Below, piece after piece: positions 1-50,125 of a DNA stretch of 64,000 nt. Position numbers and translations under genes: made by a program. A model generated the notes under the pieces. That model searched no databases and had not been told where the DNA came from. It worked only from the letters and a program-made list of their open reading frames with translations. This stretch comes from Botryllus schlosseri (taxonomy: Eukaryota): the NCBI GenBank assembly GCA_051294905.1, contig CM119371.1, positions 39,434,001 to 39,498,000 on the forward strand, in the 5' to 3' direction. Positions within the stretch are counted from its first letter, which is position 1; each line of letters starts with the position of its first letter.

Positions 1-80
1 GAAACTTATGAAAACTTATGAGACTTATGAAACTTATGAAAACTTATGAGACTTATGAAAACTTATGGAAACTTATGAAG
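1..80. repeat. 9-10 bp tandem array (AAACTTATG[A]); inner part of left TIR
   Basis: Direct reading: gaaacttatgaaaacttatgagacttatga... Confidence 0.95.
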
Positions 81-1111: not shown

Positions 1112-2303
1112 TAGTATTTTCCGGAAAACCAGAAGTAGATTAGATTCAAAACTGTAAAGCTTTGAAAAATATCAGAAATAAATTAGAGCTTACCAGCATT
1201 TCGCTCCAAGTAGACAATTATGTCGGAATCAGGGTATCTGGTATTCTCCTAAATTAACATTGCAATTTACATAAACACTGTTCGTAATTGTGGAAGAATT
1301 AAAGCTTCGTCCGGAGAGTTAGCATTTTTTATTTAATCTGTTGTGAAGAACAGAGAGTACATCAAAACAATGAGACGTCTACCAGCGCATCTGAGATATT
1401 GTGCACATTACGCAATCTTGAACTTTCCCGGCGCGGCAATCAAATTGGGTCACGCGTTAGCAACTTGGCATGTGAAGATTGCGACACAGTCGCGTTTGCT
1501 GATTGACGCTGAATTGGTATCTTGGAAATACTAGTCGACGTCAATGCCACTCAAGTATTTGGATAAACTATGCTTTAAGACAGCCTTTTCGGTTTGCGAT
1601 ATTATTGAAGATACTCGCGAAGTCGTGATACACTCATATGTGACGTATGAATATGTTGTTACTTATCGTTCCCAATGATTATGATTTTAAAAAATATATG
1701 TAGAATTGTAGATAGCATCACTGCACATCGACCAATCATCGCTGATGCGCGATTGCCCATTGCCATCCATCGTTGCTCTGGTTAAACCTCTAATGAGTCT
1801 AGTCTCGTTGTCTCCTGGCACCATGCAGTCACAGGCGTGTATCACCAGTACCAATATCCATGTCTGGTTAACGGGTAGGGTAACGGCAGAAACGAAATCA
1901 GCCGTGAAAATCGATCACTACTCAACTCGACGAGTTCTCATTTAGCGGATCACCGATCCGTTGGGGCAATTTCAAATTCAGGAGAATCCGAATTACGCTA
2001 TCTCATCCTTGACTCCTTTCGGATATTTTTCAGTTTTTAGTGAGATCACAAGTAAGCGAAAAAACATTTTATTGAAAGATATAGCAACATGTAAAACGAA
2101 ACTTAACTGAACGAACGTTTGCAGAAAGGTACGACGAATAACGGAAAGATGCCAATATAAACACGGCTATCATTATTTGGCAGACACTAATTCGAAACCC
2201 AGAAAATTTCCGCCGGTCGTATACCTAAAATGAAAATCGGAACTTGCAGCAGAATTCGAAGTACAAATATAAACACGGAATGTACAGTGCTATGATCCAC
2301 ATC

Positions 2304-5237
2304 TCACCGAACTTTTCGTTTACATTTAGTTTGTCCTGGTTTGCTACCACTTCGTTTAGAAGGATTATGTGCCAATAATTGGCCATCAGTGGATTGGGAT
2401 AAGGATTTTGTCAGCTTATAGACTGCCGGGGCGGGAAAAGCCATTAATTGCTGGAATGAACGGTCTTGCTCGTTTTCTGGCATGTCGTCCCAATCCCAAG
2501 GGGAAACCAAATACTTTTTACAATTCTCGGCGAGGGTAAATGTACCACGGCCCGTGATGCTCTTTCGCACATCCAAGTATTGTGAAGTGATCGCCGATTT
2601 TAGTAAATTAATTAGGTCCGGTAACTTTTTCTTTTTCCAGTCTGTCAATCGTTTGAGAACATGATTCATGCTCTCGCAGTTGTTGTTGGTGAACCATTGG
2701 TGTTCGACGCCCATAAAGCTACGCATACGCCAGACCTTGTTCTTCAACAAAGGTAGCAATCTCTTTTGTAGGTATGGATTAAGCGTTGGGCAGATGCCAT
2801 GGCACCTAGTCACTAGGTCTTTTTGTCTGCGATCAAATTCCATTTCGTCTTTGCTGAACAAAAGATTGAAGACTTGATTTACCAGGCTTTTTCTTAAATG
2901 CTTGCTTGTACCGATGTCGTGCTGAAGTTTGTCGACCAAATTCGTTTTTGAATGATTGACGCAGAGAACATGTTTGCAGTTTTTGAACGAGTTTTCGATG
3001 GCCGAGTGTAGTGCAATTTCGTCGTCTGTCCTCACGACTAGCCGATCAAAAGTACCTCCTATAGCGGAGCTGAGATGATTAAAGAAGTCGTTGAATGTCC
3101 CTCTATCTGAACTATGGTGGAGATATATTGGACCGATAAAAATAGGATTTTCCTGCGTTCTGGTGCTTATCATCTTCAGGTTTTTGAAAACTGCTACGGT
3201 AACGTACACATTGCCCAGGTTGTAAGTCTTATCAATTCCAAGTACGGTTTTTCCAGTACAACACATTTTTTTAATATCTGTTATTTGGTCATCGGTGTAC
3301 ATGATTATGCTAGATGCTTTCCCAGGAGAATGGATGACTCTTCTCACAAATCTTTCCGTGTGCATCATGTTAACGACATCCAAAAGTTCGTCTGCATAAC
3401 ATTTTCGCGGCAGGCTATTGTGCCCTTCTTTGCTGACCTTGTCCTGATGCTTAGTTTGGTGAATTTGATTTATATTCCGAGGCGTTTGCGAGATACTTTC
3501 AGATTCATTTTGAAGATCAACGTAAATGCGCTTTCCAGTTCCATATTTAACCTTTTCTTTTATCTTATCAATAACGCTCGGCGGAGTGCGGGTGTAATTC
3601 TGAAGATTGACAGAGCTGTTTCCATGTGAACCGCAGTCCCCAGAAATACCCTTGTACTCCACGACACACACATTACATGGTTCCGATGGTCCACTCTCAA
3701 TCCAGCTTATACGTTTTTCGTAACCAGGGTTGTTCTTTGATTTAGCGTAGTATCGCCCAACCGTGATAACGTCACCTGGACAAGGCTGCGGTGATAACGG
3801 CAAATACTCCTTCATCCGCAGTGTACAAATGGCACCGTTGTGGCAACGCGGCTTATATACGTACTTGAGTCGGTTGTCGACCTTCAAGTAATACGAATAT
3901 GTCTGCATGGTTTTCGTCCAAGCTCCCATGTCATCGTAAAATATGCGACGAATCTTGGCAGCCTTCCGTAGTATGTTCGTTGTGAAATCTATCATAATGT
4001 AACAATTGTCTTTCCGTCCTGAGGGCATCTTCGAAAGAGCATTTTTGCAATCCATAATTTTGTTAACTGCCTCCTCCGTACTCAAAAACTCGTTAAATGG
4101 CAGTTTTGTGATATTTGTTAATGTCTTGTTAGGTTTAACTGATTCGGGTTTGTCTCCGTCAGCAACTTCTCTCATTTCAGTATTCATCTGTTCACCATTC
4201 GTTTGGTCCATAGGCGAATCTTCACTCGGAATGGTGATGTCTGGCAGCGAATGCTTCTGTTCATTAGCAATTACATCGCCATGTTCGTTCCTATGAGATG
4301 TTTTGGAGTTGTCTGGTTCGCGTATAATCGGTTTGTCAATGTCGCTTTCCTGATCCTCCAATTTCAGTTTTGATTCGCATACAAGACCTGGATCACTTGA
4401 AGTTAGATCGCTGGTTTTGATCATTGGCACGAAGTGATTCGGTCGAAATGGATAACTTGTCGTAGGCACAGTCGTTTGTGTCCACATGAGAGTCGCGACA
4501 GGTCTGGCAGATTTCGATACACCGCGGCCGCAACATTTGCGTGAGAACGGTTCTGTCAAATATTCGTTTTCCGATGTTGGCGGATAATATGAGCGAATCG
4601 CGGAGCCAAGGGCTGCACTCAACGCGTAAATATGCATCATCTCGGACCATTGCCCCGGAATGCATGCTTTTTGTACCAGAAGGGCATAAGATGATGACAC
4701 AACTCGAATGTCATCTATGAGGTCTACGAATCCCTCTGCGTCTTCGTCATAATATTTTGGATTCTCAATAATTTCGAGCGCAGTCAGGAGCCTCAAGCGC
4801 AAGTGGTGTTTCGCAGTACCGTATAGGGCCAGCGACACTGCGCGATAAAAACAATTCCCATCGCCATCAACGCGCAAAACCGTGTGATCCGTGCTGATAA
4901 TATAATGAAACTGCTTCAAAATCGTCAATGAAACATCATCCACCAGTGCAGCCTCATTTGGCATGCTCCGATCAGGCTCGGGTACATTATACAAACGAAG
5001 TATTCGTTTTATAGCTGTACAATGTCCCGGATGGGCTCGAATGTGTTCCAATGTCCATCGATAATTGAATCCGCCTTCGAAGAATATACACGAGTGGCAT
5101 ATGAAAATCTGGCTTTTCCACTTGAAGTTACCGATCTTCGCACAAGAACAGTGAGAGTATCTGTTGCATTCGTAGCATTCGACGAACTCATCGGACTTTG
5201 AAAAATCCAGTCCGCACACAGTACAAGGATAAGTCAT
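2304..5237 (-). CDS. PHD finger + OTU-like cysteine protease + MULE DDE transposase (977 aa from the first in-frame ATG)
   Basis: N-terminal CTVC..CYEC..HCSC..CHSC (PHD); VDGDGNCFYRAVS...PNHFVP (OTU Asp/Cys/His); IDKTY..RTDDE..CVNH..TNNNCESMN (MULE D-D-CxxH-E). No internal stops. Confidence 0.9.
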   Translation of the reverse strand: MTYPCTVCGLDFSKSDEFVECYECNRYSHCSCAKIGNFKWKSQIFICHSCIFFEGGFNYRWTLEHIRAHPGHCTAIKRILRLYNVPEPDRSMPNEAALVDDVSLTILKQFHYIISTDHTVLRVDGDGNCFYRAVSLALYGTAKHHLRLRLLTALEIIENPKYYDEDAEGFVDLIDDIRVVSSSYALLVQKACIPGQWSEMMHIYALSAALGSAIRSYYPPTSENEYLTEPFSRKCCGRGVSKSARPVATLMWTQTTVPTTSYPFRPNHFVPMIKTSDLTSSDPGLVCESKLKLEDQESDIDKPIIREPDNSKTSHRNEHGDVIANEQKHSLPDITIPSEDSPMDQTNGEQMNTEMREVADGDKPESVKPNKTLTNITKLPFNEFLSTEEAVNKIMDCKNALSKMPSGRKDNCYIMIDFTTNILRKAAKIRRIFYDDMGAWTKTMQTYSYYLKVDNRLKYVYKPRCHNGAICTLRMKEYLPLSPQPCPGDVITVGRYYAKSKNNPGYEKRISWIESGPSEPCNVCVVEYKGISGDCGSHGNSSVNLQNYTRTPPSVIDKIKEKVKYGTGKRIYVDLQNESESISQTPRNINQIHQTKHQDKVSKEGHNSLPRKCYADELLDVVNMMHTERFVRRVIHSPGKASSIIMYTDDQITDIKKMCCTGKTVLGIDKTYNLGNVYVTVAVFKNLKMISTRTQENPIFIGPIYLHHSSDRGTFNDFFNHLSSAIGGTFDRLVVRTDDEIALHSAIENSFKNCKHVLCVNHSKTNLVDKLQHDIGTSKHLRKSLVNQVFNLLFSKDEMEFDRRQKDLVTRCHGICPTLNPYLQKRLLPLLKNKVWRMRSFMGVEHQWFTNNNCESMNHVLKRLTDWKKKKLPDLINLLKSAITSQYLDVRKSITGRGTFTLAENCKKYLVSPWDWDDMPENEQDRSFQQLMAFPAPAVYKLTKSLSQSTDGQLLAHNPSKRSGSKPGQTKCKRKVR

Positions 5238-6345
5238 AATCCAAGACGAACATGCAGCGTTGTTGCAAAAAAATACAATAATGTTTGCTATCCTCCCCAC
5301 TATTGACCTATTATACCTCAAATGATGACACCTGTCTGCTTGCTTCGATTACTGCCGCACGGGGGTAAGTTGCAAATTTTGCACAAATCTGAAGCGAGGG
5401 GACATTGCAATGAGGTGCTTTGATAACTACATGTTAACTCTCTGGTGACGTTGCGATTCTAGCTCAAGTACACGTAAGAATGTATCTATATGTGAATTGC
5501 AAAATCAGCGTAAGAGACAGCCAGTCACACACACCAGTCAATGGTCACACTAACGCTTATTCGGTTTGTACGACGAGTCCATGCCTACATAAACCCAAAA
5601 CACGTATGGGTAGGAATACTGGTGTCGACCTCAGCCTGACTCGAATTCACAACCTATTCATTTTGCAGCGGTGGCGTTGTGAATATATTCAGCGAAAATT
5701 TGAAATTATGCTTAAAATAACTGTAGTCTAAAGAAAACGATCAATAATCTAAATTATAATCCGTCGGTCTCGATGTGATGTTCATTTGTAAAAATATAAT
5801 TTCTGTCATGCCGACGACCAATATCCACGCGAACTCGGTTTACCAGACGTATCGCGTGCCGACAAGGGTTAATCCAGTTTTGTACGATGCGTTGATTGAT
5901 CGCAGACATACTGGCGCCTGTGAGACATTGCGGGTTTTCAAAACCTCATTGCCTTCCTAATTACCACCAAGAAATGAAGCGTCGTCGATGTTCAAGTTTA
6001 TAAATTCATATGGCAATCAGAACAGTCCCCAGCATTCTCTTATTAGGCGTGCTGGCACTTAGTTACCGCATGGTTTTAAGTATATTACAAGTAGGCAAAG
6101 CCTACTCGCGGACACCGAATAGGTAAAATAGCTTCGTCAGAGATCACCTCCGTGTGTCTATCGAACATCGGTGCTGTCAAATCTTCCGGTAGTTTACAGT
6201 GTGCTGCTAGCCGAAAAAGGTCGATAATGCTTGGGTGCCGCTGACTATTTTACATTTACAGAGGGTGCCGCGAGGTTGAAGATTTTGGCAACCACTGGTC
6301 TATGTAAATCTTGAATGCCATTATTGCAATCATGATTTAAAAATC

Positions 6346-6688
6346 ATAAGTTTCATAAGTTTTCATAAGTTTTCATAAGTTTTCATAAGTTTCATAAGTT
6401 TTCATAAGTTTCATAAGTTTCATAAGTTTTCATAAGTTTTCATAAGTTTCATAAGTTTCATAAGTTTTCATAAGTTTTCATAAGTTTTCATAAGTTTTCA
6501 TAAGTTTCATAAGTTTCATAAGTTTTCATAAGTTTCATAAGTTTTCATAAGTTTCATAAGTTTCATAAGTTTTCATAAGTTTCATAAGTTTCATAAGTTT
6601 TCATAAGTTTTCATAAGTTTCATAAGTTTCATAAGTTTTCATAAGTTTTCATAAGTTTCATAAGTTTCCATAATTTTCATAAGTTTCC
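6346..6688. repeat. 9-10 bp tandem array (TTTCATAAG[T]); right TIR of the MULE
   Basis: About 35 tandem units, inverted relative to 1-80. Confidence 0.95.
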
Positions 6689-6845
6689 TAGCACAAAATA
6701 AAGGCACCCATCAAAAGCAACCGCTGCCAAGCTGTGGCAACTTATACCGCTGATACAGCTGTGTTACAGATGTGCTACTTCTGATTGCGGGAGCATATGA
6801 TGATATCCAACATTGTGTATTTCACGCCATATTAGGATAGGAATA

Positions 6846-6960: not shown

Positions 6961-7227
6961 TCCATGCAATCTGTGATTGCTGTGATCACGAGTCTATAAA
7001 AGCGCCCGTTTAGCTGACTCAAAGAGGAGATTCATGTACTGTAAACCTCCATGCAAACGTTTTGAACAAACTGTGTATGGACAATATATCGTACGAATAA
7101 CTATCACAACAGTGAACCGGGAGCAGTCTCTGAGTTAAGTACCAGACAGCTCACAACCTAATATTGGATAGCTACTTTTTGAGTTATACTTCACAGAGAC
7201 ATATTCCGCATTTTCCGATAGTATATC

Positions 7228-7682
7228 TGTAGCGGTCGCTGCAACGACTTGTTGCAAGACACGCTGGTATAATGCTTGATTGGAGTCGACGCTACAACTA
7301 CAGTTCCCGTTGTACGCACTAGTTGACTGACTAATGACCGCTCTGAGTACTCTCGCAATCCTGATCACACACGCAGATCCAAGGAGCTTTCTTTACTAGC
7401 ACAGAACAGCCAAATAGTAGTAATTAGTGGTCAGAAACTTGTAGATTTACCAGGTTCAAATCATACTGCAACATATTAACGAATATAGAAAGAACAAAGT
7501 TAGATGTATCTAATTGTATGTGTACGACTCTGCGACTGACTCGCGAACACGCGCGCTACGGCGCTACACTGGTATTCTCTCAAAGCACGTGGCTTGTGCT
7601 TCGCAGATTACTTTATCAATAAGAGATTAAGGTCGTGGGAAAGAGGGAAGATTACTGGCACCCTGCTGGGACGGATCTTACA
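7228..7682 (-). repeat. 3' LTR (455 bp)
   Basis: Direct repeat of 10084-10523, preceded on - strand by the PPT. Confidence 0.95.
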
Positions 7683-8023
7683 TTCCCCCCTTTAAGGACA
7701 TTTTTGTGCAACACAAAATGTCTTAACAACTATTTTCGTAAACAATGTGGCTCCACGTCGGGGTATCGGACTTTTACAAACATTACATCGAACACAAAAG
7801 GAGAAATAGACCCTAACAGGCAACAGGTAACAAACAAAAACAGATGCTAATCACATACAACATATAGCGATTGTACAAAACAGACAGGGATAATATGAGA
7901 CCAAATCACAAATTATACTATCATCAATCACCCACAGTTTTATACTCGGACACTTCAATACTACAGCGGAAGCAGAGCACGGATGCAGGCTAGTTAAATG
8001 TAACTTTTCACATTTCACACAAA

Positions 8024-10033
8024 CTACGCGTTTTGGACAATTTTACCATGGTGCGTTCTAGTATATCTTTCCCCACATCCGTAACATAAAAACTTGTCAC
8101 GCATAAACGATATTCGTTCAGGATACGGTAAATTATCAAAATCCACACAATCTGGGATATGGTGGTCATTTTTTCCACAAAACAGGCAATTGTATTCGCC
8201 TGACATAACATTAGTTCCAAATGAAACACATGGCCTATCACGGCCATACTTTTGAGCAGATTCCGTGATATTACTATTTCGGTTTTCGTTCAACATTCTG
8301 AATTCTGGCATATTTCGACGTTCAGACTGATCTCTCACAAATGACACAAAGTACTCAAATGGAGGGTAGCAATTTACATCATTTATCTGTGCCTTGTACT
8401 TTGACACTTTACAACGCCACTTATCAATAAGTGACGGAGGTAACTTCTTCACAACGTAAACATGATTTGACGAGTAATCAAGAGTGCCTAACTCTGGCAC
8501 AAACACTTTGTACACAAAAACTTGCTCCAAGAAATCAGAGAATTCTTGCAGCCCAAGTCTATCATGTTCCTTTATATGACGCCAACCTTTCAATTTATCT
8601 ATAAAGGCCTGCCCAACAACGACAGGGCTTCCATATCTACTTCGCAAGTCACTTATTGCTTTTCGATAGGATTCCTCAGAACCACGCAGAAAATAACATT
8701 TCACAACTTTCAGCGGGCCCGGACCAAGATGTTGTTTCAACAAATTCATCTTTTCATGAACACAATACACTCTATCTTCAACTAACGCTTTAAACGAATT
8801 TTCCCATTCCATATAATTAGTTTCATCGCCATCAAAAACCCAAACTTTTATATCAGGTATTCGCGTCAACGGTTTCATGTTGTATTGACGATCAATTGGT
8901 ATATCGATAGATTGATTAACGGGCATCTTTACAAACGTGTTTCGGCCGGTTTCTTCCGGTTCAACATGTCGGACATTGTTCATTTGCACAGGAGTTTTAT
9001 CAATAACTGGGCCGTAGGATACGGGTTCACTAGATTTGACATTACATTGCCTTACTTCAGGACACACATGTGAGTTACTACTAATAAAGTTTTGTACCTT
9101 GGCTTCCGAATTCAAGACGGGAACCCAACTTCGTATTTCTGTAAAACTTGCTTCATCACGAACGACATCTTCGTCGTCATCAAGGTCAAAGGGGTTTTCT
9201 TCCCTTTCAATTTGCTTGCAAACTTTGATCATGGCTAGTTTTTCAGCTAGCTCAGTCTCCAGAGACAATTGCTTCAACTTTGCTTCGTTTTCCATTTTCA
9301 ATCGTTCCATTTCTGCTTTGCATTTAGTTTCCTTTTCGAAAGCCTCTCTTTTTGCTTCCGTTTCTCGCTTCGTAAATTCAAGTCTGGTTTTCAGAGCAGC
9401 CGCTTCTTTTTGATGATCATAAAATTGCTGTTTGTGACTGGTGCGACTGTTTCGCGTATGACGACTCGATCTCGAGCCGGCTCCAGATCTCGCGCGGCTA
9501 CAGACAGATCCATTTTCAGATGGAAGCTTCATAAAATCTATAACGTTTTGTCTGACTTTCTCAATTTTCATTTCAACCAACCTCAGACTTTTGGTGAAGT
9601 CCTTTGTTTCCGTATTTTCGGCGTACTTGGAAGTAATTTCTCCGGTAATTTTCCGCAATTCGTCTCTGTAGTAAGAAACACCTTTCATAGCTTCCCTTAC
9701 TTCTTCTTTATTTGCTGATTGCGTTATAATATCCACAACCACTTCGATGCGACTTTTAACATCTCTTTCTGTTTCACGGAACTGACGTTCAAGTTCAACC
9801 AATCTCTGATCGAATCCATGGAAAGTGCCGTCACTACTGGTTGGAACATCAGAACCCACTGACTTGCTCTTCCCGGGGATCTGGTCCACAATTTCTTTCT
9901 TGACACTTCCACGTCCGTCTTCAACACTCTCTGAACTTGGTGGAACTGGGCAGCCAGCACTCTCTGACGTTGCCACAGTTTTACTTTGTACGGCTGAGCA
10001 GTCAGCTATCTCTGACGTTGCTGCAGCTTCCAT
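8024..10033 (-). CDS. BEL/Pao Gag-like protein (coiled coil, DUF1759-like capsid region, zinc knuckles); frameshifted near the C-terminus
   Basis: FDGDETNYMEWENSF..EKMNLLKQHL..AISDLRSRYG; knuckles CLFCGKNDHHIPDC and LCYGC..HH; the continuation CPKRVVCVKCEKLHLTSLH lies in a shifted frame at ~8039-7983. Confidence 0.88.
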   Translation of the reverse strand: MEAAATSEIADCSAVQSKTVATSESAGCPVPPSSESVEDGRGSVKKEIVDQIPGKSKSVGSDVPTSSDGTFHGFDQRLVELERQFRETERDVKSRIEVVVDIITQSANKEEVREAMKGVSYYRDELRKITGEITSKYAENTETKDFTKSLRLVEMKIEKVRQNVIDFMKLPSENGSVCSRARSGAGSRSSRHTRNSRTSHKQQFYDHQKEAAALKTRLEFTKRETEAKREAFEKETKCKAEMERLKMENEAKLKQLSLETELAEKLAMIKVCKQIEREENPFDLDDDEDVVRDEASFTEIRSWVPVLNSEAKVQNFISSNSHVCPEVRQCNVKSSEPVSYGPVIDKTPVQMNNVRHVEPEETGRNTFVKMPVNQSIDIPIDRQYNMKPLTRIPDIKVWVFDGDETNYMEWENSFKALVEDRVYCVHEKMNLLKQHLGPGPLKVVKCYFLRGSEESYRKAISDLRSRYGSPVVVGQAFIDKLKGWRHIKEHDRLGLQEFSDFLEQVFVYKVFVPELGTLDYSSNHVYVVKKLPPSLIDKWRCKVSKYKAQINDVNCYPPFEYFVSFVRDQSERRNMPEFRMLNENRNSNITESAQKYGRDRPCVSFGTNVMSGEYNCLFCGKNDHHIPDCVDFDNLPYPERISFMRDKFLCYGCGERYTRTHHGKIVQNA

Positions 10034-10083
10034 TACTTTCAACTTCTCCGACTTTCAACTTTGTAACTGGTAAAGTTTCTGAC

Positions 10084-10523
10084 TGTAGCGGTCGCTGCAA
10101 CGACTTGTTGCAAGACACGCTGGTATAATGCTTGATTGGAGTCGACGCTACAGCTACAGTTCCCGTTGTACGCACTAGTTGACTGACTAATGACCGCTCT
10201 GAGTACTCTCGCAATCCTGATCACACACGCAGATCCAAGGAGCTTTCTTTACTAGCACAGAACAGCCAAATAGTAGTAATTAGTGGTCAGAAACTTGTAG
10301 ATTTACCAGGTTCAAATCATACTGCAACATATTAACGAATATAGAAAGAACAAAGTTAGATGTATCTAATTGTTTGTGTACGACTCTGCGACTGACTCGC
10401 GAACACGCGCGCTACGGCGCTACACTGGTATTCTCTCAAAGCACGTGGCTTGTGCTTCGCAGACTACTTTAGGTCGTGGGAAAGAGGGAAGATTACTGGC
10501 ACCCTGCTGGGACGGATCTTACA
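10084..10523 (-). repeat. 5' LTR (440 bp)
   Basis: By eye differs from the 3' LTR by 3 substitutions and a 15-bp indel. Confidence 0.95.
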
Positions 10524-42772: not shown

Positions 42773-44218
42773 CACTACAAAAAAAAATTAGACAAATTTG
42801 GTCTCAAATTTAAGAAATGAGGATGATTTGGTCTCATTTTCAGCAATTTCAGTCTCACTGATGGTCTCATTTTACCCACTCACCATAAATGCTATTTTCG
42901 ACTCAGACAACCATATATATATTGATCTGAATAGCACATGTGAGTAGCCTATATGGAATCTCTGTCCATTTTTTGAAATAAATCCTGCGTGATGAGAGCT
43001 TTTCTATATAGAATAATTAAGGAATTAAACAGAAAATCCGGCACTTCTTCGTTATTCCCCACACATCCAGAAGTGATCACCATGAAACCAATAAATGATT
43101 CCCATGAACATGTGAAATTTTATAGACGTCAAAATGAATTGTTTTTCGCGTTGGGGTGGGATAGACGGATATTAGGGTTGAGGAGAGGGGAGATATTAGG
43201 GTTGGGGGAGAGGGGGATGTTAGGGTTAGGAGGGTTAGGGTTAGGTTAGGGTTATGATTAGGGTTAGGGGAGGTGGGATATTAGGGTTAGGGGAGGTGGA
43301 ATATTAGGGTTAGGGGAGGTGGGATATTAGGGTTGGGGGAGGTGGGATATTGGGGTTAGGTTAGGGTTAGGGGAGGTGGGATATTAGGGTTAGGGGACGT
43401 GAATATTAGGGTTGAGGGAGAGGGTGATGTTAGGGGAGGCGGGATTTAGGGTTGGAGAGAGGGGGATGTTAGGGTTGGGGAGAGGGGTGATATTAGGGTT
43501 GGAGAAGAGGGTTAGGGACATGATATCCCACCTCCCCTAACCCTAATCATAACCCTAACCTAACCCTAATATCCCACCTCCCCTAACCCTAATATTCCAC
43601 CTCCCCTAACCCTAATATCCCACCTCCCCTAACCCTAACATCCCCCTCTCCCCCAACCCTAATATCTCCCCTCTCCTCAACCCTAATATCCCCCTCACGT
43701 AACCCTAATATCCCCCTCTCCCCCAACCCTAATATCTCCCCTCTCCTCAACCCTAATATCCGTCTATCCCACCCCAACGCGAAAAACAATTCATTTTGAC
43801 GTTTATAAATTTTTCTGTTTATGTTCATGGGGAAACATTTATTGGTGTCATGGGGATCATTTTTTCGATGTGTGGGGAATAACGAAGAAGTGCCGAAAAT
43901 CCTGCGTGACGTTGCCACCAATTCCAACCAGGGTGAGTAGTAAGTGGCATGTACCTTGATAACTATATCTAGTGAATACCTTGTAAACTTAGTACAGGAT
44001 CATCTCAACACTGCAATTTCTGGTCTCTCTCATCCTGCCCCTCCTCCGCTCAGACCCCTAACACTGAAAAGGATGCCCCCAAGGCACTGCTACTATTTTC
44101 GATCAATTTCTGGCTTACTTTTGAGACATAAAGTACTTGGTAAGACTAATTGGTCTTTAAGACTTTTTTTTTGTAAAAAATCGATTTGAGACCAAATTTG
44201 TCTGATTTTTTTGTAGTG
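42773..44218. mobile_element. CACTA/EnSpm MITE (same family as 40672-41216)
   Basis: CACTACAAAAAAAAATTAGACAAATTTGGTCTCAAAT...ATTTGAGACCAAATTTGTCTGATTTTTTTGTAGTG; flanked by TA/TA. Confidence 0.8.
43040..43894. mobile_element. palindromic MITE with inward-facing telomere-like arrays (Merlin-like termini)
   Basis: GGCACTTCTTCGTTATTCCC TIRs, 8-bp TSD GAAAATCC (43032-43039, 43895-43902); TTAGGG-containing ~21-bp units to ~43517, then CCCTAA units from ~43525. Confidence 0.85.
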
Positions 44219-44904
44219 TACTATAGGGTTGAATTCAACTCAAGTTAAATCTAGAAGTCTACAACAGCAAAAGTGGCACGAATATAGCATACGAACTAGG
44301 CAAACTTTTCCTATAAATCAGCAAACCTAGTAGTATCTTGACTCGACCTAAATCAATGTGTCCAAGAAAGAGAAATATAATAGGTAGTAGCCCAGATGGC
44401 GAAGGATTGTTAACATTATACAAACAGGCTGTTGCACTAGCGCCACTTGCCACCTTGGCAGCAGATAAAGTGACCTCGACCTAAGATTTCGATATGCACC
44501 TATATGCGAACATCAATTCCATATTTCTACAATTCTAACATCAAATACCGGTAGTTCCTAAGGTGCTCACGTAAACAACACTTGATAAGATCTAATACCA
44601 AAGGGGATCACAGCCTCGGAAATCCAGCCTCGGAAAATGACGGGGGATCCGAGCCTCGAATCGGTGAATGCACGCGTACACACTCACGCGCAGGCTAGAT
44701 GCCAGTTTACCGCGTCATTGTTATATAGATACTCGATTTTGATGGACGAATTACTACTCCGCAAATTGAGACCCAATAACGAAACTCATAACAGTGTTAG
44801 CCAACATCATTAAGGTGTAGCATACCAAATTTCGTCAACCATTTTAGGATGAAACGCCTTCAAAACCAACGCCGTCCAAAATCGACTTTTCCGTTACATC
44901 TGTT

Positions 44905-46145
44905 TGCGGTAGCGTAGCACGCACCTATACGTAATCAACTTTAATATCGAAATTTGCCATTTCCCCAACTCGAAATTTGGTACGCAGTTGTAGGACATTA
45001 TGACAATGCAACATACCAAATTTCGTAACATATTTTATGTCGGAACACCTTGAAAACTAACGCAGTTCTATACCGACTTTTGCGTTAATCTATTTTACGG
45101 GAGCATAGCACGCACATTACACAGTCAACTTTAATATCGTTACGGGACTGTAGCACGCACCTATACATAGTCAACTTTAATATCGAAATTTGCCATTCCC
45201 CCAACTCGAAATTTGGTACGATGTTGTAGGACATTATGACAATGCAACATACCAAATTTCGTAACATATTTTATGTCGGAACACCTTCAAAACTAACGCA
45301 GTTCCATACCGACTTTTGCGTTAATCTATTTTACGGAAGCGTAGCACGCACATATACACAGTCAACTTTAATATCGAAATCTGCCATTCCCCCAACTCGA
45401 AATTTGGTACGCAGTTGTAGGACATTATGACAATGCAACATACCAAATTTCGTAACATATTTTATGTTGGAACACCTTTAAAACTAACGCAGTTCCATAC
45501 CGACTTTTGCGTTAATCTATTTTACGGGAGCGTAGCACGCACATATACACAGTCAACTTTAATATCGTTACGGGACTGTAGCACGCACCTATACATAGCC
45601 AACTTCAATATCGAAATTTGCCATTCCCCCAACTCGAAATTTGGTACGCAGTTGTAGGACATTACGACAATGCAACATACCAAATTTCGTGACATATTTT
45701 ATGTTGGAACACCTTTAAAACTAACGCAGTTCCATACCGACTTTTGCGTTAATCTATTTTACGGGAGCATAGCACGCACACATACACAGTCAACTTTAAT
45801 ATCGTTACGGGACTGTAGCACGCACCTACATAGTCAACTTTAATATCGAAATTTGCCATTCCCCCAACTCGAAATTTGGTACGCAGTTGTAGGGCATTAT
45901 GACAATGCAACGTACCAAATTTCGTAACATATTTTATGTTGGAACACCTTTAAAACTAACGCAGTTCCATACCGACTTTTGCGTTAATCTATTTTACGGG
46001 AGCGTAGCACGCACATATACACAGTCAACTTTAATATCGAAATTTGCCATTCCCCCAACTCGAAATTTGGTACGCAGTTGTAGGACATTATGACAATGCA
46101 ACATACCAAATTTCGTAACATATTTTATGATGGAACACCTTTAAA
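44905..46145 (+). repeat. subterminal tandem repeats (~190/~235-bp units), left arm
   Basis: Recurrent ATTATGACAATGCAACATACCAAATTTCG units; inverted counterpart at ~49485-50125. Confidence 0.92.
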
Positions 46146-46384
46146 ACATTTCACAATTAGATTAGAATTAGAATTAGAGCATAACAACATTTAGAAAATT
46201 AGATTGGAACCAGATTACTTGGCATTTTGCTCGATTTTAGCGAAATTACACAACTATAATTATCTAGTTGTCCAAATCTGATACATACTCAGCTTTCTTA
46301 AGGGGCCACTTAACATAATTAGCAATAAACAAAACAATGGCGTAACCGAATGAAGACGTCTCGTAATTATACGGGTGCCATTAT

Positions 46385-49484: not shown

Positions 49485-50125
49485 AGCTATGCTCCCGTAA
49501 AATAGATTAACGCAAAAGTCGGTATAGAACTGCGTTAGTTTTAAAGGTGTTCCAACATAAAATGTGTTACGAAATTTGGTATGTTGCATTGTCATAATGT
49601 CCTACAACTTCGTACCAAATTTCGAGTTGGGGGAATGGCAAATTTCGATATTAAAGTTGACTGTGTATATGTGCGTGCTATGCTCCCGTAAAATAGATTA
49701 ACGCAAAAGTCGGTATGGAACTGCGTTAGTTTTCAAGGTGTTCCGACATAAAATATGTTACGAAATTTGGTATGTTGCATTGTCATAATGTCCTACAACT
49801 GCGTACCAAATTTCGAGTTGGGGGAATGACAAATTTCGATATTAAAGTTGACTATGTATAGGTGCGTGCTACAGTCCCGTAACGATATTAAAGTTGACTG
49901 TGTATATGTGCGACTGTGCGTGCTATGCTCCCGTAAAATAGATTAACGCAAAAGTCGGTATGGAACTGCGTTAGTTTGCAAGGTGTTCCGACATAAAATA
50001 TGTTACGAAATTTGGTATGTTGCATTGTCATAATGTCCTACAACTGCGTACCAAATTTCGAGTTGGGGAAATGGCAAATTTCGATATTAAAGTTGATTAC
50101 GTATAGGTGCGTGCCACGCTACCGC
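49485..50125 (-). repeat. subterminal tandem repeats, right arm
   Basis: Reverse complement of the 44905-46145 units, fewer copies. Confidence 0.92.

Follow-up and report, generated by a model that had tools for sequence, protein, structure and literature searches.

In a 64,000-nt window of the Botryllus schlosseri genome (contig CM119371.1, positions 39,434,001 to 39,498,000, of the 495-Mb assembly GCA_051294905.1), we identified a 6,985-bp copy of a foldback-type Mutator (Mutator-like element, MULE) DNA transposon, which carries a single-exon open reading frame (ORF) for a transposase of 977 amino acids (aa), denoted P0001, at positions 2304-5237 of the minus strand. The first 276 bp of the element precede the window, starting at contig position 39433725, and the window opens in the inner end of its left terminal inverted repeat (TIR), a 9/10-bp tandem array at 1-79 (plus strand). 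The right TIR (6344-6709, minus strand) comprises a tandem array at 6344-6686 and a terminal stretch at 6687-6709, and is followed by an 8-bp target site duplication (6710-6717, plus strand), the partner of which flanks the element on the left, beyond the window. A preliminary description of this DNA had reported an uninterrupted ORF with an N-terminal PHD finger, an OTU domain with its Cys near 4851 and its His near 4434, and a D-D-CxxH-E MULE core, lying between inverted tandem arrays. All of these features are borne out by the present analysis: the frame is open for 977 codons, the domains are recovered as detailed below, and the arrays at 1-79 and 6344-6686 are the inner parts of the foldback-type TIRs. 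An insertion of ~400 bp at 709-1112 (no strand assigned), in the 3' region of the element and with an (ATG)n tract at its end, is present in this copy only and missing from its sibling copies; it may be the end of a retroposon.

From the N- to the C-terminus (all coordinates on the minus strand), the protein consists of a Pygopus-type C4HC3 PHD finger (aa 5-50, 5088-5225) with Tyr27 at the position of the cage Trp; a helical extension (aa 56-99, 4941-5072); an OTU domain (aa 100-275, 4413-4940) with Cys129 at 4851-4853, His268 at 4434-4436, and conserved Asp100 and Asp126; a loose, variable linker that is weakly constrained (aa 276-377, 4107-4412); a likely DNA-binding domain with a WRKY-GCM1-like fold (aa 378-560, 3558-4106); and the Mutator DDE core with its helical insertion (aa 624-941, 2415-3368), which contains D669, D738, C759xxH762 and E855. 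In a structural model of the head (aa 1-280; predicted local distance difference test, pLDDT, 95; predicted template modelling score, pTM, 0.92), the extension joins the PHD finger to the OTU domain, and the two are predicted to fold as a single unit. Between the two subfamilies of the element, A and B, the ratio of nonsynonymous to synonymous substitution rates (dN/dS) was 0.12 for the DDE core, 0.22 for the OTU domain, 0.23 for the DNA-binding domain, 0.36 for the PHD finger and 0.65 for the linker.

At the DNA level, 41 sites in the assembly match the ORF, and 15 of them were examined with their flanks. The full ORF, from the PHD finger to the end, is present at 9 of these 15 loci, three encoding 977 aa (subfamily A, including this copy) and six encoding 991 aa (subfamily B). 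In both subfamilies the ends carry a common 16-bp motif and then ~300-500 bp of tandem arrays, which are inverted between the ends. Among the 13 transposase loci examined for target duplications, 12 had both ends, and the duplication was 8 bp long in 9 of these and 9 bp in 2, with no exact duplication in 1; 15 further end-pairs without a transposase match showed an 8-bp duplication in 5 cases, a 9-bp duplication in 3 and no exact duplication in 7. Subfamilies A and B are ~87% identical to each other, the copies of A are 98.3-99.2% identical, and four copies of B are 99.93-99.97% identical. The near-identity of these sister copies, together with 271 exact occurrences of the terminal 16-mer in the genome (vs. 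1 for the reversed control), indicates that the family has recently been mobile in the B. schlosseri genome. A chance ORF or an assembly artefact is ruled out by the multiple copies, the target duplications and the purifying selection. Relatives of the protein are widespread beyond this genome (4,059 matches in a search of cluster representatives, 384 of them at E <=1e-30). The same genome also holds more divergent PHD-OTU-MULE families (L039, L042, L044, L045 and L048), with OTU domains 29-59% identical and with open frames of 1,048 codons in L044 and 1,006 codons in L045.

The DDE core matches the Pfam MULE profile at aa 665-764 (E = 4.7e-5, 24.2 bits), below the cut-off of 27.6, and relatives match it above the cut-off. 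Each of the residues D669, D738, C759, H762 and E855 is kept in 89-90 of the 92 aligned proteins, with the CxxH motif following the second Asp. The C-terminal model (aa 378-977) has a pLDDT of 91, and its DDE fold is best matched by ISCth4 (6xg8; Z 13.3, root-mean-square deviation (rmsd) 5.2, 234 aligned residues), followed by Hermes (Z 9.5); among solved structures, the C-terminal profile had a single sequence match, which we attribute to chance. The DDE triad with CxxH, the RNase H core with its helical insertion, the TIRs and the 8-9 bp duplications place the element in the Mutator/MULE superfamily, for which target duplications of 8-11 bp are given in a published table (PMC6446971). Membership in the Phantom group was considered and ruled out, as the N-terminal finger is a PHD and no FLYWCH domain occurs among the Pfam matches of the protein up to E = 1. 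For the DNA-binding part (aa 378-593), the fold scores were Z 7.4 for SSR4, Z 7.1 for GCM (1odh; rmsd 3.0, 101 aligned residues) and Z 6.2 for NAC, middling values in a range that is common among folds.

The transposase had further been called intact, which is true of the frame but less clearly of the DDE core. This copy differs from its sibling copies at 12 residues. R736, private to this copy, lies two residues ahead of the second catalytic Asp, at a position occupied by Gly in 86 of the 92 aligned proteins, and S763 is unique among the 92; both are absent from all 8 of the other full-length copies compared. Judged from these residues, the private changes may have impaired this copy in spite of its intact frame; the family itself is unimpaired.

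The OTU domain matches its Pfam profile at aa 125-216 (24.5 bits vs. a cut-off of 23.3). Comparison with related domains was based on 199 proteins, of which 107 match the OTU profile and 96, with more than 140 aligned residues, were kept. Of these 96 relatives, 93 retain the catalytic Cys together with the His, and in the other family ORFs aligned from the same genome the Cys is kept in 10 of 10, as is the His position. Every listed fold match of the head model, by Foldseek and VIA, is an OTU domain, the best being OTUD3 (Z 15.5, rmsd 2.0, 132 aligned residues), and the matches to VCPIP1, A20, Cezanne and TRABID extend over part of the N-terminal extension. On the strength of this conservation, the purifying selection and the fold, we predict with considerable confidence that the OTU domain is a catalytically active isopeptidase. 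Capture of host fragments is frequent in MULEs (PMC6446971), and on that precedent the head might be neutral cargo; given an OTU dN/dS of 0.22 and the retention of Cys and His both across the relatives and within the genome, we regard this as very improbable.

The PHD finger is recognised from the family, though Pfam makes no PHD call on the 977-aa protein itself. Such a call was obtained for 4 of the 15 relatives scanned (E = 2e-5 to 4e-3), all 8 zinc ligands of the C4HC3 pattern are invariant in the 16 aligned PHD-bearing family members, and the top five matches of the family PHD profile are Pygopus PHDs (E = 4.5e-12), the top ranks being held by the H3K4me readers Pygopus, MLL, DIDO and BPTF. 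Among 65 proteins that contain both OTU and MULE domains, 41 start too near the OTU domain to tell, and 24 have room for a PHD finger, which is full in 16, partial in 5 and missing in 3. Pygo1 binds methylated H3K4 via W366, Y341 and D352, with A356 as the base of the pocket (PMC2726290). When aligned to Pygo1, the present protein keeps the Tyr; an aromatic residue lies ahead of the first Cys pair in most family PHDs, and the other families of this genome, wherever they have the finger, retain the cage Trp. Because this Trp is kept in 15 of the 16 aligned members and replaced by Tyr27 in the present subfamily, histone reading appears likely for the family and less so for this subfamily. The stretch at 5056-5072 (aa 56-61, minus strand) and the helix that follows gave a low-confidence alignment to the BCL9 HD1 of Pygopus-BCL9 fusion constructs; the post-PHD stretch may be a built-in mimic of this Pygopus partner, or the resemblance may be due to chance.

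OTU domains with ubiquitin and PHD fingers with histone H3 are textbook binding pairs. We predict, with a probability of about 0.55, that the PHD-OTU head is a chromatin-tethered deubiquitinase that acts at the site of transposition. By analogy with the Mutator family, the DDE core would cut and paste the element and the GCM-like domain would bind the terminal arrays; the PHD finger would anchor the head to histone tails or to proteins of chromatin, and the OTU domain would strip ubiquitin from the transposase and adjacent proteins, which would spare the transposition complex from turnover or silencing. The evidence that we count towards this prediction consists of the ends, the duplications, the recent copies, the dN/dS values, the conserved Cys and His, the folds, an exchange of the head for a Ulp1 domain in relatives (see below), and the in vitro activity of Helitron-borne VTD deubiquitinases, for which a role against proteasomal loss has been proposed (PMC9741609).

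Several observations weigh against this prediction. The residue two positions after the catalytic His is acidic in 0 of the 96 OTU relatives and Val in 86, which leaves only candidates for the third member of the triad. Asp100, 29 residues ahead of Cys129 and kept in 86 of 96 relatives (6 gaps), may fill this role, beside Asp126 (kept in 93 of 96), the Asp named in the preliminary description, because the Cys/His dyad of Cezanne works with Glu157, which similarly precedes its Cys194, by 37 residues (PMC11776055). In the PHD finger of this subfamily, Tyr27 stands at the position of Pygo1 W366 and Phe18 at that of the pocket base A356. Of the long relatives placed in the core tree (78), 36 lack a full OTU domain, a number that cannot be read as a count of real losses because some are gene calls that are plainly truncated and retain OTU remnants; on the DDE tree, the OTU label clustered no more tightly than in shuffles (67/500 as low), an uninformative result as many gene calls are cut short. 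Expression, finally, lends thin support. When the RNA reads of 4 runs were placed on 1150-6300, 50 reads came from a single-cell run; they are spread across the ORF, all on one strand, likely sense (the library chemistry being assumed), and derive in part from other copies. Of the other runs, one covered one ORF bin, one had no reads over the ORF, and one was without any reads and thus provided no test. None of the sequencing runs listed as matching was recorded as RNA.

The same OTU subtype also occurs on 2 hAT, 5 Helitron and 18 DUF7869-like proteins. The last group has a different transposase-like region, with DUF7869 as the nearest named Atlas clusters (score 0.93), and shows motifs that may be akin to those of Sola elements. 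The spacing from the Cys to the His202-equivalent is 65-78 residues in 65 MULE OTUs, 63 in the 5 Helitron, 96 in the 2 hAT and 81-110 in the 18 DUF7869-like OTUs; the tree of OTU domains across carriers is a quick tree only. All own-genome OTU matches that could be placed were MULE-linked or fragments. The hAT transposases (P0190 and P0191) have an N-terminal, long-insert OTU domain and, judged by eye, resemble vertnin more closely than any other protein encountered; the DUF7869-like proteins (P0167-P0188) have a C-terminal OTU domain with Cys and His intact, and two invertebrate DUF7869-like relatives are named VRTN-like or Vertnin in NCBI and UniRef.

The hAT, Helitron and DUF7869-like carriers show no match to the PHD-plus-extension profile of the MULE family, which bears on a more specific role for the head, namely that of a histone reader-eraser: the PHD finger would dock on methylated H3K4 and the OTU domain would deubiquitinate H2A/H2B, so as to direct insertion to open chromatin or to reverse silencing. 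The first-ranking H3K4me readers, the cage Trp in 15 of 16 members, the aromatic residue that precedes the first pair of Cys in most members and the prediction of PHD and OTU as one unit are consistent with this; an OTU subtype that travels without the family's PHD, and the replacement of the cage Trp in the very subfamily that was recently active, count against it, and we consider the reader-eraser role possible but rather improbable. The position of the OTU domain, N- or C-terminal, varies across carriers, and two MULE relatives (P0008 and P0009) have an N-terminal Ulp1 domain in place of PHD-OTU on the same core. In a quick tree, these Ulp1-bearing cores nest among the OTU-bearing ones (Shimodaira-Hasegawa-like approximate likelihood ratio test, SH-aLRT, 95). 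Both the swap with a Ulp1-family domain, which handles ubiquitin-like modifiers, and the varied placement fit deconjugation better than self-processing, in which the OTU would cut the head off in the linker and so release or regulate the transposase. That idea has been put forward for the OTUs of Medicago MULEs (PMC1702500) and would suit the loose linker between head and transposase, yet we judge it quite unlikely here. Occurrence on carriers of different chemistries would also suit a role after cutting, as proposed for the OTU and Ulp1 domains of Ginger1 (PMC2836005), in which the OTU would adjust ubiquitin signalling during repair of the DNA break such that the host survives transposition; this overlaps with, and by sequence is indistinguishable from, a deubiquitinase acting at the transposition site, and as a separate explanation it seems unlikely.

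The preliminary description had also likened the OTU domain to that of vertnin (VRTN) and supposed that such elements may be related to the origin of this gene; the subtype is indeed the same, but the OTU of the MULE lineage lacks the insert of vertnin. Human vertnin has been described as having an OTU-like domain that is catalytically dead, with five helix-turn-helix (HTH) domains after it (PMC10318531), and an IS3-like HTH in vertnin was noted in 2011 (PMC3024977). We compared the published vertnin alignment (PMC10318531, supplement 9, part 1 of 2) by eye with the column counts of the family. Pig vertnin keeps 11 of the 11 non-catalytic positions picked (D59, G83, S91, R105, E111, Y119, A178, P192, M221, W222 and F237), with Leu85 at the Cys position and Tyr236 at the His position. 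Because ~90 residues (by hand count) separate the Cys position of vertnin from the His202-equivalent, which is above the MULE range, the vertnin OTU, which by eye belongs to this subtype, appears nearer to the long-insert hAT and DUF7869-like forms than to the MULE form. The OTU subtype is what vertnin and this MULE have in common, whereas vertnin is described, in the sections of the source available, without a PHD, GCM-like or DDE part. Homolog searches returned no vertebrate vertnin, and we found no published proposal of a transposon origin of vertnin in the literature covered, which did not extend to subscription journals or Repbase. On balance we lean slightly towards derivation of the vertnin OTU from some transposon. 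Derivation from this MULE lineage is unlikely, and as a direct ancestor the lineage fits poorly, its OTU being without the long insert and vertnin without the MULE domains. More speculatively, a single mobile, active OTU deubiquitinase module might have spread across Mutator, hAT, Helitron and DUF7869-like elements, being welded to a PHD finger as a reader-eraser here and surviving in vertnin as a dead, long-insert descendant, a scenario that we offer tentatively and hold to be doubtful. If the link to vertnin is true, a gene tied to vertebral number descends from an enzyme of a transposon, and what the dead domain of vertnin once bound would become apparent from its active relatives.

Elsewhere in the window, direct repeats at 7227-7682 and 10083-10523, which are 98-99% alike, surround a 669-aa ORF with a DUF1759 domain (8024-10033, minus strand); we take the region 7227-10523 to be a shortened long terminal repeat (LTR) retrotransposon, presumably of the BEL/Pao type. 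At 43167-43512 and 43523-43761 lies a pair of inverted arrays built of telomere-like 23-bp units, perhaps the termini of a further element, and inverted arrays of 191-245-bp units at 44821-46147 and 49486-50114, ~3.3 kb apart, may represent another foldback element.

Transposons have repeatedly acquired ubiquitin and SUMO proteases. Ginger1 and Helitrons carry OTU domains, Mutators carry Ulp1, and one Ginger1 has Ulp1 together with a PHD finger (PMC2836005); in 2022, transposon OTU domains were called untested (PMC9741609). The question why transposons acquire such domains becomes directly testable with the present family because its head is compact, predicted to be well folded and 280 aa long, and its young copies are near-identical.

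Comparison with known systems was made by description. The OTU-, Ulp1- or VTD-bearing Ginger1 and Helitron elements are likewise fusions of transposons with deconjugases but belong to other transposase superfamilies (PMC2836005, PMC9741609), and nothing on OTU fusions was found in the available portions of PMC6875170 and PMC13359780. MuDR-6_HM from Hydra (MULE group 14 of Dupeyron et al. 2019) is, like the present element, a single-ORF animal MULE with an 'Ovarian Tumour Gene' motif, but it is listed as 5,227 bp long and as lacking both TIRs and a zinc finger, whereas foldback TIRs and a PHD finger are found in the present one (PMC6446971). Rehavkus resembles the present element in having one ORF, a PHD finger, TIRs of 26-400 bp, a 9-bp duplication and a minisatellite near one end, and differs from it in that no OTU is listed and that it serves as an outgroup to MULEs (PMC6446971). 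Phantom and the Mutator/Foldback element Tm1 have, as here, foldback-like TIRs with tandem repeats, a MULE transposase and a 9-bp duplication; they use FLYWCH, which was not detected in the present protein, and an OTU domain is not mentioned for them in the available part of the source (PMC3169594). Medicago MULEs combine a WRKY-GCM1 domain, a Mutator core and an OTU domain in one chain, a set that the present protein probably shares, but the OTU of these plant elements is C-terminal, whereas the present one is N-terminal, behind the PHD finger (PMC1702500). The novelty first supposed for the whole architecture is accordingly narrower, with OTU domains already listed on MULEs (MuDR-6_HM, Medicago) and a PHD finger on Rehavkus, and it lies in the N-terminal PHD-OTU-MULE order, which was not found in the literature searched. 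Taken together, these comparisons indicate that the class of fusion is already known, and that the present family adds to it the order of the domains, the single-unit head, the spread of the OTU subtype over four carriers and a refined link to vertnin.

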